Shown here piece after piece: positions 2,762-6,852 of a DNA stretch of 39,233 nt; the first letter of the stretch is position 1, and every line of letters begins with the position of its first letter. The notes under the pieces were generated by a model. The model searched no databases and was not told where the DNA came from. It worked only from the letters and a program-made list of their open reading frames with translations. The translations under genes were made by a program, and so were the position numbers. This DNA comes from Escherichia phage Peacock. The stretch lies in sequence record MK903279.1; one strand, given 5' to 3'.

Positions 2762-2784
2762 ACTTAACTATCACTATAGGACTC
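2762..2784 (+). promoter_or_regulatory. Phage RNA polymerase promoter immediately upstream of gene 1
   Basis: ACTTAACTATCACTATAGGACTC fits the 11-copy family consensus (TAAACTATCACTATAGGGA), +1 G at 2779. Confidence 0.6.
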
Positions 2785-2853
2785 AAGGTCTAAGACTCCA
2801 AGTGAAAGACCAAAGAGACTTTAAGTGAAAGACTAATAACAAGGACTTTAAGT

Positions 2854-5535
2854 ATGAGCGTCATCTCTATTGACAAACACGACTTCTCTGATGTGTCGAA
2901 CGCCATTGAGCCGTTTAACCTGCTGGCTGACCACTACGGGCAAGACCTTGCAGTCAAACAGCTTCAGCTTGAGCATGAGGCATACACTGAAGGCGAGCGA
3001 CGTTTCATCAAAAACCTTGAGCGACAGACTGAGCGCGGGGAACTGGCAGACAATCAGGTCGCCAAGCCTTTGATGCAGACTCTGGTCCCTAAGATTGCGC
3101 AAGCCGTCAGGGAGTGGCATGAAGGTCAAGACGGGAAGCTGTCAACCTCTCGTCCTAGCGTAGCGTTCACCATGTTGAGCACTGAAGAGAAGGCCGTTAA
3201 AGACCGCTCTATGCGCATCTCCTGCGAGTCTGCTGCGGTTATCATACTGAAGGTCATCCTCAGCAAGCTGGTCAAGCCTGAAGGGATACCGATTACACCG
3301 ATGGCCTCAGCGATAGGTCGCACACTTGAGGATGAAATCCGCTTCGGTCGCATTCGTGACAAGGAGAAGGAGCACTTCAAGAAGGCGATAGCTGATAACC
3401 TGAATAAGCGGGCTGGGGCATCCTACAAAAAAGCCTACATGCAAGCGGTTGAGGCATCCATGCTGGAGCAAGGACAACTGGAAGATGCGTGGGGGACTTG
3501 GAGTCCGACCGAGGCTGTCCACGTTGGAATCAAGATGCTTGAGATTGTCATCCAGTCAACACAACTGGTCGAGCTTAAGCGCTACGGTGCTGGCAATGCA
3601 GCGGCTGATGTAGAGATGGTCCACCTGTCAGACTTCTGGGTCAAGAAGATGGCACAACGAGGCTTCAGCCTTGCGGGTATCGCTCCGGTCTATCAACCTT
3701 GCGTCGTTCCACCTAAGCCGTGGACTGGTGTCGTAGGCGGTGGGTACTGGGCCAAAGGTCGCAGACCACTACCATTGATTCGCTTAGGGTCTAAGTCTGC
3801 GGTGGCACGCTATGAAGACGTGTACATGCCTGAAGTCTATGACGCTGTGAATATCATCCAGAATACGCCTTGGAAAGTGAACAAGAAGGTGCTGGACGTG
3901 GTGAACATGGTCGAGAAGTTGAACAACACGCCTATTGATGACATCCCTCAGATGGAGCCACTGAAGCCTGAAGACTATGCGGGTGAGACTGAAGAGGAAC
4001 TCAAGGCATGGAAGAAGACTGCTGCTGGTATCTACCGCCGAGAGAAGGCCCGCCAGTCACGCAGATTGTCACTGAGCTTTATCGTTAACCAAGCGAACAA
4101 GTTCTCTCAGTTCAAGGCCATCTGGTTCCCGTATAACATGGACTGGCGCGGTCGCGTCTACGCTGTGCCGATGTTCAACCCTCAGGGTAACGACATGCAA
4201 AAGGGTCTCCTGACTCTGGCAGTCGGTAAGCCTATTGGTGCTGATGGTTTCAAATGGCTGAAGGTCCACGGTGCAAACTGTGCGGGTGTCGATAAAGTCA
4301 CCTTCGAGGAGCGCATCAAGTGGGTGGAAGATAACCACGACAACATCATGGCTACCGCTAAGGCACCGATGGACAGCATTGAGTGGTGGGGTAAGTTAGA
4401 CTCTCCGTTCTGCTTCCTAGCGTTCTGCTTCGAGTATGCTGGCGTAATGCACCACGGTTTGTCTTACTCCTGCTCGCTGCCGATAGCTTTCGATGGGTCC
4501 TGCTCTGGGATTCAGCACTTCAGCGCGATGCTTCGTGATCACATCGGTGGACATGCAGTAAACCTGACGCCTTCCGGTAAGGTCCAAGACATCTACCGCA
4601 TCGTGTCTGACCGCATTGAGGAGGAGCTTAAAGTCCTGCTGGTTAATGGCACGGACAACGAGGTGGTCACTCACGAGGATAAGAAAACTGGCGAGATTAC
4701 CGAACGTATCAAGCTGGGGACACGAGAGCTGGCCCGCCAGTGGCTGACCTACGGTATGTCACGCAAGGTCCCTAAGCGTTCAGTAATGACTCTGGCCTAC
4801 GGGTCGAAAGAGTATGGCTTCGCAGACCAAGTTTACGAGGACATCGTGATGCCAGCGATTGACTCAGGGTCTGGCGCTATGTTCACCGAGCCAAGCCAAG
4901 CGTCTCGCTTCATGGCTAAGATGATTTGGGAAGCTGTGAGTGGAACCGTAGTTGCTGCTGTTGACGTGATGAAGTGGCTTCAGGGTGCTGCCAAGCTGCT
5001 GGCTGCTGAAGTGAAGGACAAGAAGACTGGAGAAATCCTGAAGCCTTGCCTTCCGGTACACTGGGTCACACCTGATGGGTTCCCGGTCTGGCAGGAATAT
5101 CGCAAGAAGGATACCACTCGTCTGAACCTGATGTTCTTAGGGTCATTCAACCTTCAACCTACGGTCAACAAAGGCACGAAGAAAGAGCTGGACAGGCACA
5201 AGCAGGAGTCAGGCATTAGCCCGAACTTCGTCCACTCACAAGATGGAAGCCACCTACGCAAGACTGTAGTCCACACGCATCGCAAGTATGGCGTGATATC
5301 ATTCGCAGTGATTCACGATAGCTTCGGGACCATCCCGGCTGACGCTGAGTATCTGTTCCGTGGTGTCCGTGAGACGATGGTCGAGACCTACCGAGACAAC
5401 GATGTGCTGTTGGACTTCTACGAGCAGTTTGACTGCCAGCTTCACGAGAGCCAGCGCGACAAGTTGCCAGAGCTTCCGAAGAAAGGTAAACTGAATATCG
5501 AGGACATCTTGTCTTCAGACTATGCATTCGCTTAA
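2854..5535 (+). CDS. Single-subunit DNA-dependent RNA polymerase (T7 gene 1 homolog)
   Basis: 893 aa; N-terminus KHDFSDVSNAIEPFNLLADHYG and C-terminus ...HESQRDKLPELPKKGKLNIEDILSSDYAFA match T7 RNAP as recalled (...FAFA end); specificity-loop region PTVNKGTKKELDRHKQESG present. Confidence 0.97.
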   Translation: MSVISIDKHDFSDVSNAIEPFNLLADHYGQDLAVKQLQLEHEAYTEGERRFIKNLERQTERGELADNQVAKPLMQTLVPKIAQAVREWHEGQDGKLSTSRPSVAFTMLSTEEKAVKDRSMRISCESAAVIILKVILSKLVKPEGIPITPMASAIGRTLEDEIRFGRIRDKEKEHFKKAIADNLNKRAGASYKKAYMQAVEASMLEQGQLEDAWGTWSPTEAVHVGIKMLEIVIQSTQLVELKRYGAGNAAADVEMVHLSDFWVKKMAQRGFSLAGIAPVYQPCVVPPKPWTGVVGGGYWAKGRRPLPLIRLGSKSAVARYEDVYMPEVYDAVNIIQNTPWKVNKKVLDVVNMVEKLNNTPIDDIPQMEPLKPEDYAGETEEELKAWKKTAAGIYRREKARQSRRLSLSFIVNQANKFSQFKAIWFPYNMDWRGRVYAVPMFNPQGNDMQKGLLTLAVGKPIGADGFKWLKVHGANCAGVDKVTFEERIKWVEDNHDNIMATAKAPMDSIEWWGKLDSPFCFLAFCFEYAGVMHHGLSYSCSLPIAFDGSCSGIQHFSAMLRDHIGGHAVNLTPSGKVQDIYRIVSDRIEEELKVLLVNGTDNEVVTHEDKKTGEITERIKLGTRELARQWLTYGMSRKVPKRSVMTLAYGSKEYGFADQVYEDIVMPAIDSGSGAMFTEPSQASRFMAKMIWEAVSGTVVAAVDVMKWLQGAAKLLAAEVKDKKTGEILKPCLPVHWVTPDGFPVWQEYRKKDTTRLNLMFLGSFNLQPTVNKGTKKELDRHKQESGISPNFVHSQDGSHLRKTVVHTHRKYGVISFAVIHDSFGTIPADAEYLFRGVRETMVETYRDNDVLLDFYEQFDCQLHESQRDKLPELPKKGKLNIEDILSSDYAFA

Positions 5536-5547
5536 CAGGAGAGAGTT

Positions 5548-5763
5548 ATGAAATTTGCACACAAGCAGACTGGCGTTAAGGGTGGGACCCAAATCGTGAC
5601 CGTAACAGAGCACAATGGTAAGGGTCTAGTGAAGACCACGGTCATCCCTACCGAGATGTCAAAGCAGCTTAATGTCCCATTCAAGACTCTTGTATATCTG
5701 GTCGAGTCAAGCCACGAGAAGTACCTGAAGGACGCAGTGTCCAAACTGGAGCAGACCAAATGA
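5548..5763 (+). CDS. Hypothetical protein (71 aa)
   Basis: GGAGAG RBS 6 nt upstream of ATG; no counterpart recalled at this position in T7. Confidence 0.55.
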   Translation: MKFAHKQTGVKGGTQIVTVTEHNGKGLVKTTVIPTEMSKQLNVPFKTLVYLVESSHEKYLKDAVSKLEQTK

Positions 5764-5842
5764 CAGACCTACAGTTACTAGCCTTGTGGCTGGGAGCACT
5801 TGCAGTATTCACTTTAATCCAACGAAGAAGAGGTTAACCCAT

Positions 5843-5959
5843 ATGTTCAACCGTAAACTGAAAGCACGTATCGCAGATCTCGAAGCAACCATCCAGCGTC
5901 AGGACCATAATCTTGAGCTGGCTAACCGGGAGCACGCACGGCTAAGGGCCAAGATTTAG
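5843..5959 (+). CDS. Small ORF (38 aa), in frame with downstream ORF across a TAG
   Basis: AGAGGT RBS; translation MFNRKLKARIADLEATIQRQDHNLELANREHARLRAKI, then TAG at 5957-5959. Confidence 0.3.
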   Translation: MFNRKLKARIADLEATIQRQDHNLELANREHARLRAKI

Positions 5960-6004
5960 AAGGCTGAAGAGAAGCGTGAAGTCGAGCCGTTCGAGGTTAA
6001 GCGG

Positions 6005-6304
6005 ATGGTCGGCCTGAAGTTCAAGGCTCTGTTCAATAGCCTCTACCAGCCGACTGAGTTCAAGACCGGGCCTGGAGCATGCGGTAAGATTGTGACGCAC
6101 TTCACCACGAGTCGAGACGAGCGGACCCTGACCATCCACCAGCACCACACGGATGGCTCTCAGAAGGACTTTGAGTACCGACTGAGCGACATCGACGGTC
6201 GCATCCAGTATGACTACGAGCAAGTTAAAGTCTATGGACAGGAGGCCGAACGTGAGCGAGCGATTCAGGCATTCACGCAGGTAAGACCGCGCATCATCTT
6301 CTAA
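6005..6304 (+). CDS. Hypothetical protein (99 aa); possibly the C-terminal part of an amber-interrupted gene
   Basis: Same frame as 5843..5959, separated by one TAG and 15 sense codons; own GAGGT RBS. Confidence 0.5.
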   Translation: MVGLKFKALFNSLYQPTEFKTGPGACGKIVTHFTTSRDERTLTIHQHHTDGSQKDFEYRLSDIDGRIQYDYEQVKVYGQEAERERAIQAFTQVRPRIIF

Positions 6305-6322
6305 ACTATCACTATAGGATTA
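6300..6322 (+). promoter_or_regulatory. Phage promoter (phi1.1-like)
   Basis: CTAAACTATCACTATAGGATTAG; +1 G at 6317. Confidence 0.7.
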
Positions 6323-6364
6323 GACTCAAGGTCATGACTCAAAGTCGTGGCCTTCATGATTAAC
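6318..6364 (+). promoter_or_regulatory. RNase III-type processing hairpin (R1.1-like)
   Basis: AGACTCAAGGTCAT...GTGGCCTTCATGATTA; same element recurs at 13114 and 36221 and resembles T7 R0.3 (ACTCAAGG...GCCCTTTATGATA) as recalled. Confidence 0.5.
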
Positions 6365-6402: not shown

Positions 6403-6576
6403 ATGTATCAGAACACTATCAACTTTGAGCGCATCCGTGAACGCCAGCAGACTGAAGGTTACATTCCTAAGGGCCGCAAGCTGAACAAGACTAAACGTGG
6501 TGGTGGCGTGAAGGGAGCTTTCCGAAACGCTGAAGGTAAAGACTCTCTCTGGTCAACCAAGAGAAATACTTCGTAG
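6403..6576 (+). CDS. Gene 1.1-like small basic protein (57 aa)
   Basis: Translation contains GRKLNKTKR, shared with T7 gp1.1 as recalled; not in ORF track (below 60 aa). Confidence 0.6.
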   Translation: MYQNTINFERIRERQQTEGYIPKGRKLNKTKRGGGVKGAFRNAEGKDSLWSTKRNTS

Positions 6577-6588
6577 GAGCATAACCAA

Positions 6589-6852
6589 ATGGGCCGACTT
6601 TATAGTGGCAACCTCAACGCTTTCAAAGCAGCGTGTAACAGGCTTTATCAGTTAGACTTCGCTGTTATATCTCAGGAGTTTCAAGACCATACGTCACGCC
6701 AAGAGTGCATGAAACTCAGGGTGGAGGACCGAGCTGGTAACATCTTCGCGCTTGAGACCTTCGCACACTACGATGAAGACGTGCTGTATAATACTGCAAC
6801 AGACTACCTCAACGGTCTCGCTGACCAACTCGACACATGGAGCAAAGCATAA
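6589..6852 (+). CDS. Gene 1.2-like protein (inhibitor of host dGTPase in T7)
   Basis: MGRLYSGNLNAFKAACNRLYQLDFAVI... matches T7 gp1.2 (MGRLYSGNLAAFKAATNKLFQLDLAVI...) as recalled. Confidence 0.85.
   Translation: MGRLYSGNLNAFKAACNRLYQLDFAVISQEFQDHTSRQECMKLRVEDRAGNIFALETFAHYDEDVLYNTATDYLNGLADQLDTWSKA

Follow-up and report, generated by a model that had tools for sequence, protein, structure and literature searches.

A likely nonsense allele of gene 1.05 in Escherichia phage Peacock that probably leaves a separately translatable domain

Introduction

In phage T3, gene 1.05 is located between gene 1 and the elements phi1.1, R1.1 and gene 1.1, and it is preceded by the promoter phi1.05 and by the primary origin. 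Its product is a protein of 90 aa devoid of a helical arm, and it belongs with gp1.05 of phages EcoDS1 and phiSG-JL2 to a group that shares the same beta domain. In Kayfunavirus, on the other hand, gp1.05 is normally a long protein of about 150-160 aa that carries a helical arm. No paper found in our literature searches assigns a function to gp1.05, which is named there as a hypothetical protein only.

Three other situations are useful for comparison with a gene that appears in two pieces. Phage T7 gene 4 gives rise to the proteins 4A and 4B, which are both produced from an intact ORF and are both functional. The A1 protein of phage Q-beta is an example of programmed stop-codon readthrough. 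Finally, dispensable accessory genes of phages are also encountered as natural nonsense or frameshift pseudogenes.

Here, we describe a locus of Escherichia phage Peacock that can be compared with all of these systems. Two ORFs lying in the same frame, of 38 and 99 codons, occupy the position of T3 gene 1.05. They encode the same beta domain (85.9 bits), and the 99-residue ORF matches the short architecture of the T3 protein, while the long Kayfunavirus form is cut at codon 39. Where T3 has a promoter and the primary origin ahead of gene 1.05, Peacock displays no promoter and two small ORFs. As in T7 gene 4, an ATG inside the reading frame, equipped with its own Shine-Dalgarno site, is predicted to deliver the C-terminal part as a separate protein; in Peacock, however, a stop codon eliminates the long form, and the strong internal site exists in one subgroup of the family only. 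As in accessory pseudogenes, the lesion concerns a single base and the gene is absent or broken elsewhere among the relatives (phages SH3, ST57 and Vec13, contig L031), but the Peacock lesion lies upstream of a domain with a usable start and mimics a short isoform instead of creating a plain null. Q-beta A1 has in common with this locus an in-frame stop between two coding segments. The Peacock stop is nevertheless not conserved, its surroundings revealed neither a stimulatory context nor an RNA structure, and the downstream part possesses its own start. In our view, the two ORFs are likely to represent a nonsense allele of gene 1.05, which is an accessory gene found in the T3/T7 group (Studiervirinae); this allele would leave a separately translatable domain.

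Results

Organization of the interval between gene 1 and gene 1.1

Peacock is a T7-like podophage of 39,233 bp that was isolated on E. coli 4s and sequenced at 514-fold Illumina coverage (Peacock genome announcement). It belongs to Kayfunavirus. The window analyzed here is the whole stretch of 39,233 nucleotides (sequence record MK903279.1). The features of the interval and of its borders are the following.

2854-5535: gene 1, 893-aa T7-type RNA polymerase
5548-5763, + strand: 71-codon ORF, 71 aa, located 3' of gene 1
5760-5837, + strand: 25-codon ORF, hydrophobic peptide MTDLQLLALWLGALAVFTLIQRRRG
5843-5959, + strand: N-terminal fragment of gene 1.05, 38 aa, MFNRKLKARIADLEATIQRQDHNLELANREHARLRAKI, ending with TAG 5957-5959
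5957-5959, + strand: nonsense codon TAG, codon 39 of gene 1.05
5960-6004, + strand: codons 40-54 of the original gene 1.05 (15 sense codons, frame unchanged), now an untranslated spacer with the internal Shine-Dalgarno site GAGGT
6005-6304, + strand: C-terminal ORF of gene 1.05, 99 aa, starting at Met55
6300-6322, + strand: phage RNA polymerase promoter, equivalent of phi1.1, with the core AACTATCACTATAGGA at 6304-6319
6328-6354, + strand: hairpin, equivalent of T3 R1.1, downstream boundary of the gene 1.05 unit
6403: start of gene 1.1

A first-pass annotation of this DNA had described ORFs 5843-5959 and 6005-6304 as lying in one frame, with only the TAG and 15 sense codons between them, and this was recovered when the coordinates were re-derived; read through the TAG, 5843-6304 amounts to 153 codon positions. 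It had also credited each ORF with its own ribosome-binding site. Indeed, the 38-codon ORF is preceded by AAGAGGT at 5828-5834 (-6.5 kcal/mol against the 16S 3' end) and the 99-codon ORF by GAGGT at 5993-5997 (-6.6 kcal/mol), 7 nt before the ATG at 6005. Both Shine-Dalgarno sites match those of genes 1.1 and 1.2 (-6.4 and -6.5 kcal/mol) and stand at about the top 10% of the ATGs of the window. The same annotation placed no phage promoter in the interval and the next one at 6300, in agreement with our scan: the promoter core AACTATCACTATAGGA, found at 11 sites in the window versus 0.32 expected, has zero sites in 2766-6304, the nearest one being at 6304-6319. Two other statements had to be amended. 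The three ORFs listed between gene 1 and gene 1.1 are real, but the interval contains four conserved ORFs, that at 5760-5837 having been overlooked. T7 had been taken as the term of comparison, and T3 fits better, since gene 1.05 is present there and is followed by phi1.1 and R1.1.

The order gene 1, gene 1.05, phi1.1, R1.1, gene 1.1 is indeed common to the window, T3 and EcoDS1. The promoter core at 6304-6319 overlaps the stop codon of the 99-codon ORF, and a promoter is annotated at the matching place in EcoDS1 and T3. Downstream, the hairpin at 6328-6354 (-16.6 kcal/mol, z -3.46, with 0 of 200 shuffled sequences folding as well) aligns with the annotated R1.1 stem-loop of T3, an RNase III site. 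Searches of the interval yielded no Rfam family, no sigma-70 promoter above background and no intrinsic terminator.

The 71-codon ORF is a conserved Kayfunavirus accessory gene. It matches PHROG 8082 (E 3.6e-42), with zero matches in Pfam, NCBIfam and PADLOC, and annotated copies occur in LS3, SH3, EcoDS1, Vec13 and metagenome contigs; relative to the ECG4 copy, 20 codons have changed synonymously and 6 non-synonymously. The start of the 25-codon ORF overlaps the stop of the 71-codon ORF (ATGA), and its final codons contain the Shine-Dalgarno site of gene 1.05. Of 28 related loci, 25 contain this small ORF, the exceptions being contig L007, T3 and phiSG-JL2; Vec13 keeps it although gene 1.05 is absent there. 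Its 19 different DNA versions, which show numerous synonymous changes, all have 25 codons, and it is annotated as a CDS in IMM-002.

The two ORFs correspond to a single gene in related phages

The joined 153-residue product matches PHROG 8103 (E 6e-52) over profile positions 11-162 of 165, whereas the 99-aa ORF alone covers positions 68-162 only (E 1e-45); no protein family of its own was found for the 38-residue ORF in the PHROG search. Since a single protein family accounts for the joined product over its whole length, the split arrangement is not a matter of chance. The Pfam family PF25755 (Phage_T3_1_05, 'Enterobacteria phage T3 gene 1.05 protein') is matched with 85.9 bits (E 1.9e-24), well above its curated cut-off of 27 bits, by residues 55-125 of the joined product over profile positions 2-73 of 73. 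The domain thus begins exactly at Met55, the first residue of the second ORF.

A tblastn search with the joined query retrieved 118 phage records, 88 of which gave one collinear match with at least 80% coverage, a type of match that is blind to internal stops. Loci and proteins were inspected directly in about 20 relatives (EcoDS1, EcL30g, EV136_1, P7124, IMM-002, Ro103C3lw, ten IMG/VR contigs and three metagenome contigs among them), and gene 1.05 was uninterrupted in these, with about 150-160 codons; the EcoDS1 orthologue is annotated as gp1.05 and has 156 aa. At the position of the TAG, the intact relatives read AAG (Lys) or CAG/CAA (Gln) between the same flanking nucleotides, and the 15 'spacer' codons are coding sequence, KAEEKREVEPF[ER]VKR. 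Peacock departs from this long form, one open ORF of about 150-160 codons, by the TAG at codon 39. Of the possibilities raised by the first-pass annotation, that of a single gene, about 153 codons long and cut by a nonsense mutation, is thus borne out, including the uninterrupted ORF of about 150 aa that it proposed to look for in related phages. That of two independent genes does not hold for the history of the locus, given the intact orthologues, but retains some practical truth, the second ORF being a full Pfam domain with its own ribosome-binding site. Altogether, the ORF pair is almost certainly a single gene 1.05 split by a nonsense mutation.

The TAG codon is one allele shared by descent

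The nearest intact relatives, contigs L023, L024 and L025, carry AAG at codon 39 within flanks that are otherwise almost identical, and L023 is identical to the window over the first 114 nt of gene 1.05 except for 1 nt. CAG or CAA is found in more distant relatives. The most parsimonious origin of the stop, judging from these alignments, would be one A-to-T transversion from AAG (Lys), while a C-to-T change from CAG (Gln) is possible. The CAG-to-TAG transition had been our first choice and was dropped because the nearest intact relatives carry AAG.

The same TAG was found in ECG4, LS3 and LS2 only, three records from one laboratory. A pattern scan provided no further copy, with 1 match in IMG/VR (reading CAG) and 0 in the JGI metagenomes. 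These three records are the nearest ones in the phage collection (92-93% identity over 25 kb), and all are Kayfunavirus. They differ from the window by 2 synonymous codons across the 153 codons of gene 1.05, while divergence amounts to 9-12% in the flanking 71-codon ORF and in gene 1.1, for the most part at synonymous sites. Since their gene 1.05 is almost identical to that of Peacock, the TAG is one inherited allele and not an independently conserved stop. Relatives with a stop at the same place, which the first-pass annotation regarded as an argument against a split gene, are therefore limited to one allele by descent. Its presence in ECG4, LS3 and LS2 also means that the TAG is real and heritable. 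On the evidence of these divergences, we take it to be one young allele on a recently shared cassette. The window itself shows no lineage-specific change in gene 1.05.

The C-terminal ORF spans a complete domain behind an older internal start

The 99-aa product is 100% identical to the hypothetical protein CPT_Peacock_014 and spans the complete T3 gp1.05-type beta domain with the C-terminal helix. The AlphaFold model of an intact relative (P0001, pLDDT 86.6) consists of a helix (residues 2-44), a six-strand beta domain (50-130) and a C-terminal helix. The TAG position falls inside the long helix, ahead of the beta domain. When modelled alone, the 99-residue ORF (pLDDT 78.5) displays seven strands and a helix and forms the same domain as in the full-length model. 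This small predicted beta domain bears a weak resemblance to Sm/SH3-like barrels. Searches with gp1.05 returned no PDB sequence match and no PADLOC or NCBIfam match, and the homologues found in BFVD are uncharacterised phage proteins only.

Family lengths are bimodal. Among 74 representatives taken at 50% identity, 40 have at most 112 aa and 29 have 140-200 aa, with the domain in C-terminal position. Stand-alone short homologues of 73-91 aa exist in other phages, and short forms are found in BFVD for phages of Pseudomonas, Dickeya, Ralstonia and Aeromonas. The sequences of the family suggest that the beta domain can stand alone, and we regard it as a self-sufficient module.

Met55 is at least 90% conserved in an alignment of 40 sequences. 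The internal Shine-Dalgarno site is strong (-6.3 to -6.6 kcal/mol) in 5 of 26 loci, namely the window, ECG4, LS3, L023 and L024, and weak (+0.1 to -3.3 kcal/mol) in the other 21. L023 and L024, which are intact, already read TTC GAG GTT AAG CGG ATG. We had considered that GAGGT (R51E, CGA to GAG) could be a compensation for the stop; this is ruled out by its presence in these two intact relatives, which makes it older than the stop. Because the strong site is confined to this haplotype group, the stop arose where the domain was already separately translatable. The sequence thus speaks for a 99-codon ORF that is probably still translated. That the 99-residue protein is actually made and retains activity is, to our mind, slightly better than an even bet.

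Gene 1.05 is lost or damaged in several relatives

In Vec13, gene 1.05 is absent and the stop of the 25-codon ORF (...GAGGTTAACC) is directly followed by the phi1.1 promoter; YZ1 and EPr2 give the same shortened match. Citrobacter phage SH3 carries an independent TAG at an invariant Tyr of the beta domain, and Salmonella phage ST57 and protein P0164 have in common a 1-nt deletion that splits this domain. In contig L031, an independent 4-nt deletion in the helix region leads to the same 99-codon ORF from Met55. Gene 1.05 is thus dispensable among the relatives and often broken. Moreover, because the lesions of SH3 and ST57 hit the beta domain and Vec13 does without the gene, we see no general pressure to keep the domain.

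Discussion

We propose the following course of events. An ancestral long gene 1.05, coding for a helix of about 45 residues and the PF25755 beta domain, would have acquired a TAG at codon 39 in Peacock and the three sister records. In a non-suppressing host, the full-length protein would be lost and ribosomes would release a 38-residue helical stub at the TAG. The beta domain would then be translated from Met55 (6005) through the pre-existing GAGGT located 7 nt upstream, with ribosomes either starting afresh or re-initiating after termination 45 nt upstream. The resulting 99-residue protein would have the architecture of natural short forms such as T3 gp1.05 (90 aa). As for the stub, the 38-codon ORF aligns with residues 1-38 of intact gp1.05, that is, with the helical, coiled-coil-like arm. 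From this alignment the fragment is probably a remnant, and it probably has no function.

The main alternative is that the whole gene is dead, both fragments being functionless and the 99-codon ORF being open only because the mutation is recent. We consider this possible, although with less confidence than the persistence of an active domain. As lesions strike both halves of the gene among the relatives, this explanation stays alive: gene 1.05 is missing from Vec13, YZ1 and EPr2, the beta domain has been broken independently in SH3 and ST57, and the TAG clade itself carries a Ser at Gly66, a position invariant in 40 aligned homologues. The lack of lineage-specific changes in the window would also mean that the ORF has had little time to decay. 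However, the internal Shine-Dalgarno site is as strong as those of real genes on the same mRNA, so that some product would be hard to avoid, and the short stand-alone domain is the commonest architecture of the family.

Further damage in both halves is seen in ECG4 and LS3. In both, the start codon of the N-terminal fragment is ACG and 10 of its 11 changed codons are non-synonymous; the count in this comparison is 1 synonymous and 10 non-synonymous changes for the fragment versus 134 and 22 for the RNA polymerase (Fisher p 2e-7). In the C-terminal half, substitutions affect the invariant F110 and Y112, and an insertion has removed the stop codon. Such damage would fit a decay of the whole gene. 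We had taken the decay of the N-terminal fragment as proof of relaxed selection, but this argument was downgraded since the cassette is almost without synonymous divergence. For the same reason, neutral decay fails to explain the changes, which exceed what it would produce in so young a segment. Moreover, a 93-bp (ACGT)n/(TGCA)n insert is present in ECG4, LS3 and LS2 alike, and in LS2 a series of eight ordered blocks, each a copy of part of the 71-codon ORF of that record, overlies gene 1.05. The ECG4 and LS3 records look unreliable in the 1.05 region. With changes above neutral expectation, 93-bp inserts and a scrambled LS2, we have given little weight to the ECG4 and LS3 differences.

Another hypothesis would be that certain hosts, through their defences, select against phages with gene 1.05 and that its repeated knock-out in natural Kayfunavirus populations is a means of escape, Peacock being an arm-less escape variant that keeps the beta domain by way of the older internal ribosome-binding site. 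A parallel can be drawn with T7, whose gp1.2 and gp10 trigger exclusion by the F-plasmid protein PifA. This idea, which proceeds by analogy, seems to us improbable. If it were true, the Peacock allele would be conditionally reversible in amber-suppressing hosts. The lesions observed are amber codons of two independent origins, two or three frameshifts, and cases in which the whole gene is absent.

Slightly less probable still is that amber readthrough or host suppression restores the 153-residue gp1.05, the stop being leaky or conditional and giving two products or host-dependent ones. Lys or Gln is tolerated at the stop position, so that a supE-type Gln suppressor or a Lys suppressor would recreate a natural sequence. 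In the window, the N-terminal ORF still has both a start codon and a Shine-Dalgarno site, and a second natural allele, that of SH3, is likewise a TAG. However, basal UAG readthrough is low in E. coli. The sequence after the stop contains no RNA structure, the fold of 5930-6040 being no better than that of shuffled sequences (z -0.63). No tRNA gene is present in the window, where no other gene is split by TAG and where this codon serves the phage as a normal terminator. The first-pass annotation had mentioned expression by amber readthrough, a suggestion that these findings do not sustain. Nor is the stop conserved across diverged relatives, since it is found within one allele only and about 20 other loci or proteins have a sense codon. 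Peacock was isolated on E. coli 4s, a strain that, judging from the title of its cited paper, came from horse faeces and is not a laboratory suppressor strain.

One could also assume that the ORFs are two bona fide separate genes and that their in-frame layout is normal for this phage group. The ribosome-binding site on each ORF and the entire Pfam domain within the second one would fit this view. It is nevertheless hardly credible, given the continuous ORF across the junction in all relatives outside the single TAG allele, the conservation of the 15 spacer codons as coding sequence and a 38-residue ORF that belongs to no family of its own. Finally, a sequencing or assembly error, for which none of our results speaks, is practically excluded by the same TAG in ECG4, LS3 and LS2, which come from another continent, and by the 514-fold Illumina coverage of the published Peacock assembly.

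Read as a nonsense allele of gene 1.05, the locus illustrates the ordinary decay of a known dispensable accessory gene and leaves the picture of T7-group biology unchanged. The twist is a modest one: what remains after the cut is a self-sufficient domain with a usable internal start ahead of it, which makes Peacock a natural arm-less allele for the study of the gp1.05 family. For annotation, the 'hypothetical protein' of 99 or 130 residues in Peacock, ECG4 and LS3 corresponds to the tail of gene 1.05 as split by the nonsense codon, and the 38-codon ORF to its head. The labels 'microtubule-binding protein' given to intact homologues appear to be an artefact of the helical, coiled-coil-like arm.

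Gene 1.05 as a cassette

Gene 1.05 is missing from the related phage Vec13 (L026, locus 960-1060 in its own coordinates), and likewise from YZ1 and EPr2. In Vec13, the phi1.1 promoter directly adjoins the stop codon of the 25-codon ORF that lies upstream of gene 1.05 in the window (...GAGGTTAACC). Gene 1.05 thus behaves as a presence/absence cassette among phages that are ~94% identical to the window over the aligned parts. When window 5843-6304 is compared with gene 1.05 of ECG4 (L001) and LS3 (L002), which display the same TAG, synonymous differences are found at just 2 codons, whereas the genes flanking 1.05 differ by 9-12%; the cassette has therefore been recently shared. With respect to the window, the 38-codon fragment of ECG4 and LS3 has lost its start and accumulated 10 non-synonymous changes, and FEY110-112 is replaced by YML. 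These changes exceed what neutral decay explains.

The records of ECG4, LS3 and LS2 (L027) look artefactual or edited. All three of them contain a 93-bp insert (approximately locus 1400-1495), placed between the phi1.1 promoter and codon 152 of gene 1.05, within which (ACGT)x8 is followed by (TGCA)x4. Moreover, gene 1.05 of LS2 is overlaid with eight ordered blocks of 12-45 nt copied from the 71-codon ORF of LS2 itself.

Other broken alleles of gene 1.05

A separate in-frame TAG, of independent origin, interrupts gene 1.05 of the Citrobacter phage SH3 (L003, locus 943-1413), where it takes the place of an invariant beta-domain Tyr (ALFDGK*QPTEF); the gp1.05 annotation of this record covers the 70-residue head only. 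The gene is split in the Salmonella phage ST57 (L029, locus 695-1173) by a 1-nt deletion, GGGCCC to GGGCC, that yields ...TGPGHVARQ*. The identical deletion is observed for protein P0164, and the N-terminal variants of these two phages differ; the deletion may be recurrent, spread by recombination or due to a sequencing error. Finally, the ENA metagenome contig L031 (locus 1830-2300) has lost 4 nt from the helical-arm part of gene 1.05, and what remains is a called 99-residue ORF that starts at Met55 as in the window. The Peacock allele has an independent parallel in this contig.

Neighborhood of gene 1.05

The following features, all on the + strand, surround the gene in the window:
5760-5837, 25-codon hydrophobic ORF MTDLQLLALWLGALAVFTLIQRRRG
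6328-6354, stable hairpin (-16.6 kcal/mol, z -3.46)
6403-6852, genes 1.1 and 1.2, an in-frame pair separated by TAG

The start of the 25-codon ORF and the stop of the 71-codon ORF share nucleotides (ATGA), and the 3' end of the 25-codon ORF also serves gene 1.05 as its Shine-Dalgarno site. This small ORF probably represents a genuine micro-gene encoding a membrane peptide. It is kept at a constant length of 25 codons in 25 of the 28 related loci, in 19 DNA versions with numerous synonymous changes, and Vec13 retains it despite being devoid of gene 1.05.

On the other side, the hairpin lies just 3' of the promoter and aligns with the annotated RNase III site R1.1 of T3. Further downstream, gene 1.1 stops at TAG 6574-6576 and gene 1.2 (6589-6852) begins four codons on in the same frame. 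This arrangement appears coincidental, because the two genes occupy different frames in SH3.

Annotation errors in related phages

Some annotations in the records of relatives (L017, H19, H24, H33 and L004) are erroneous. Intact gp1.05 is labeled "microtubule-binding protein", apparently because of its helical, coiled-coil-like arm. The 71-codon ORF of EcoDS1 is named "gp1.1", besides the true gene 1.1, and the gp1.05 start in IMM-002 and EV136_1 is annotated at an upstream GTG, overlapping the 25-codon ORF.
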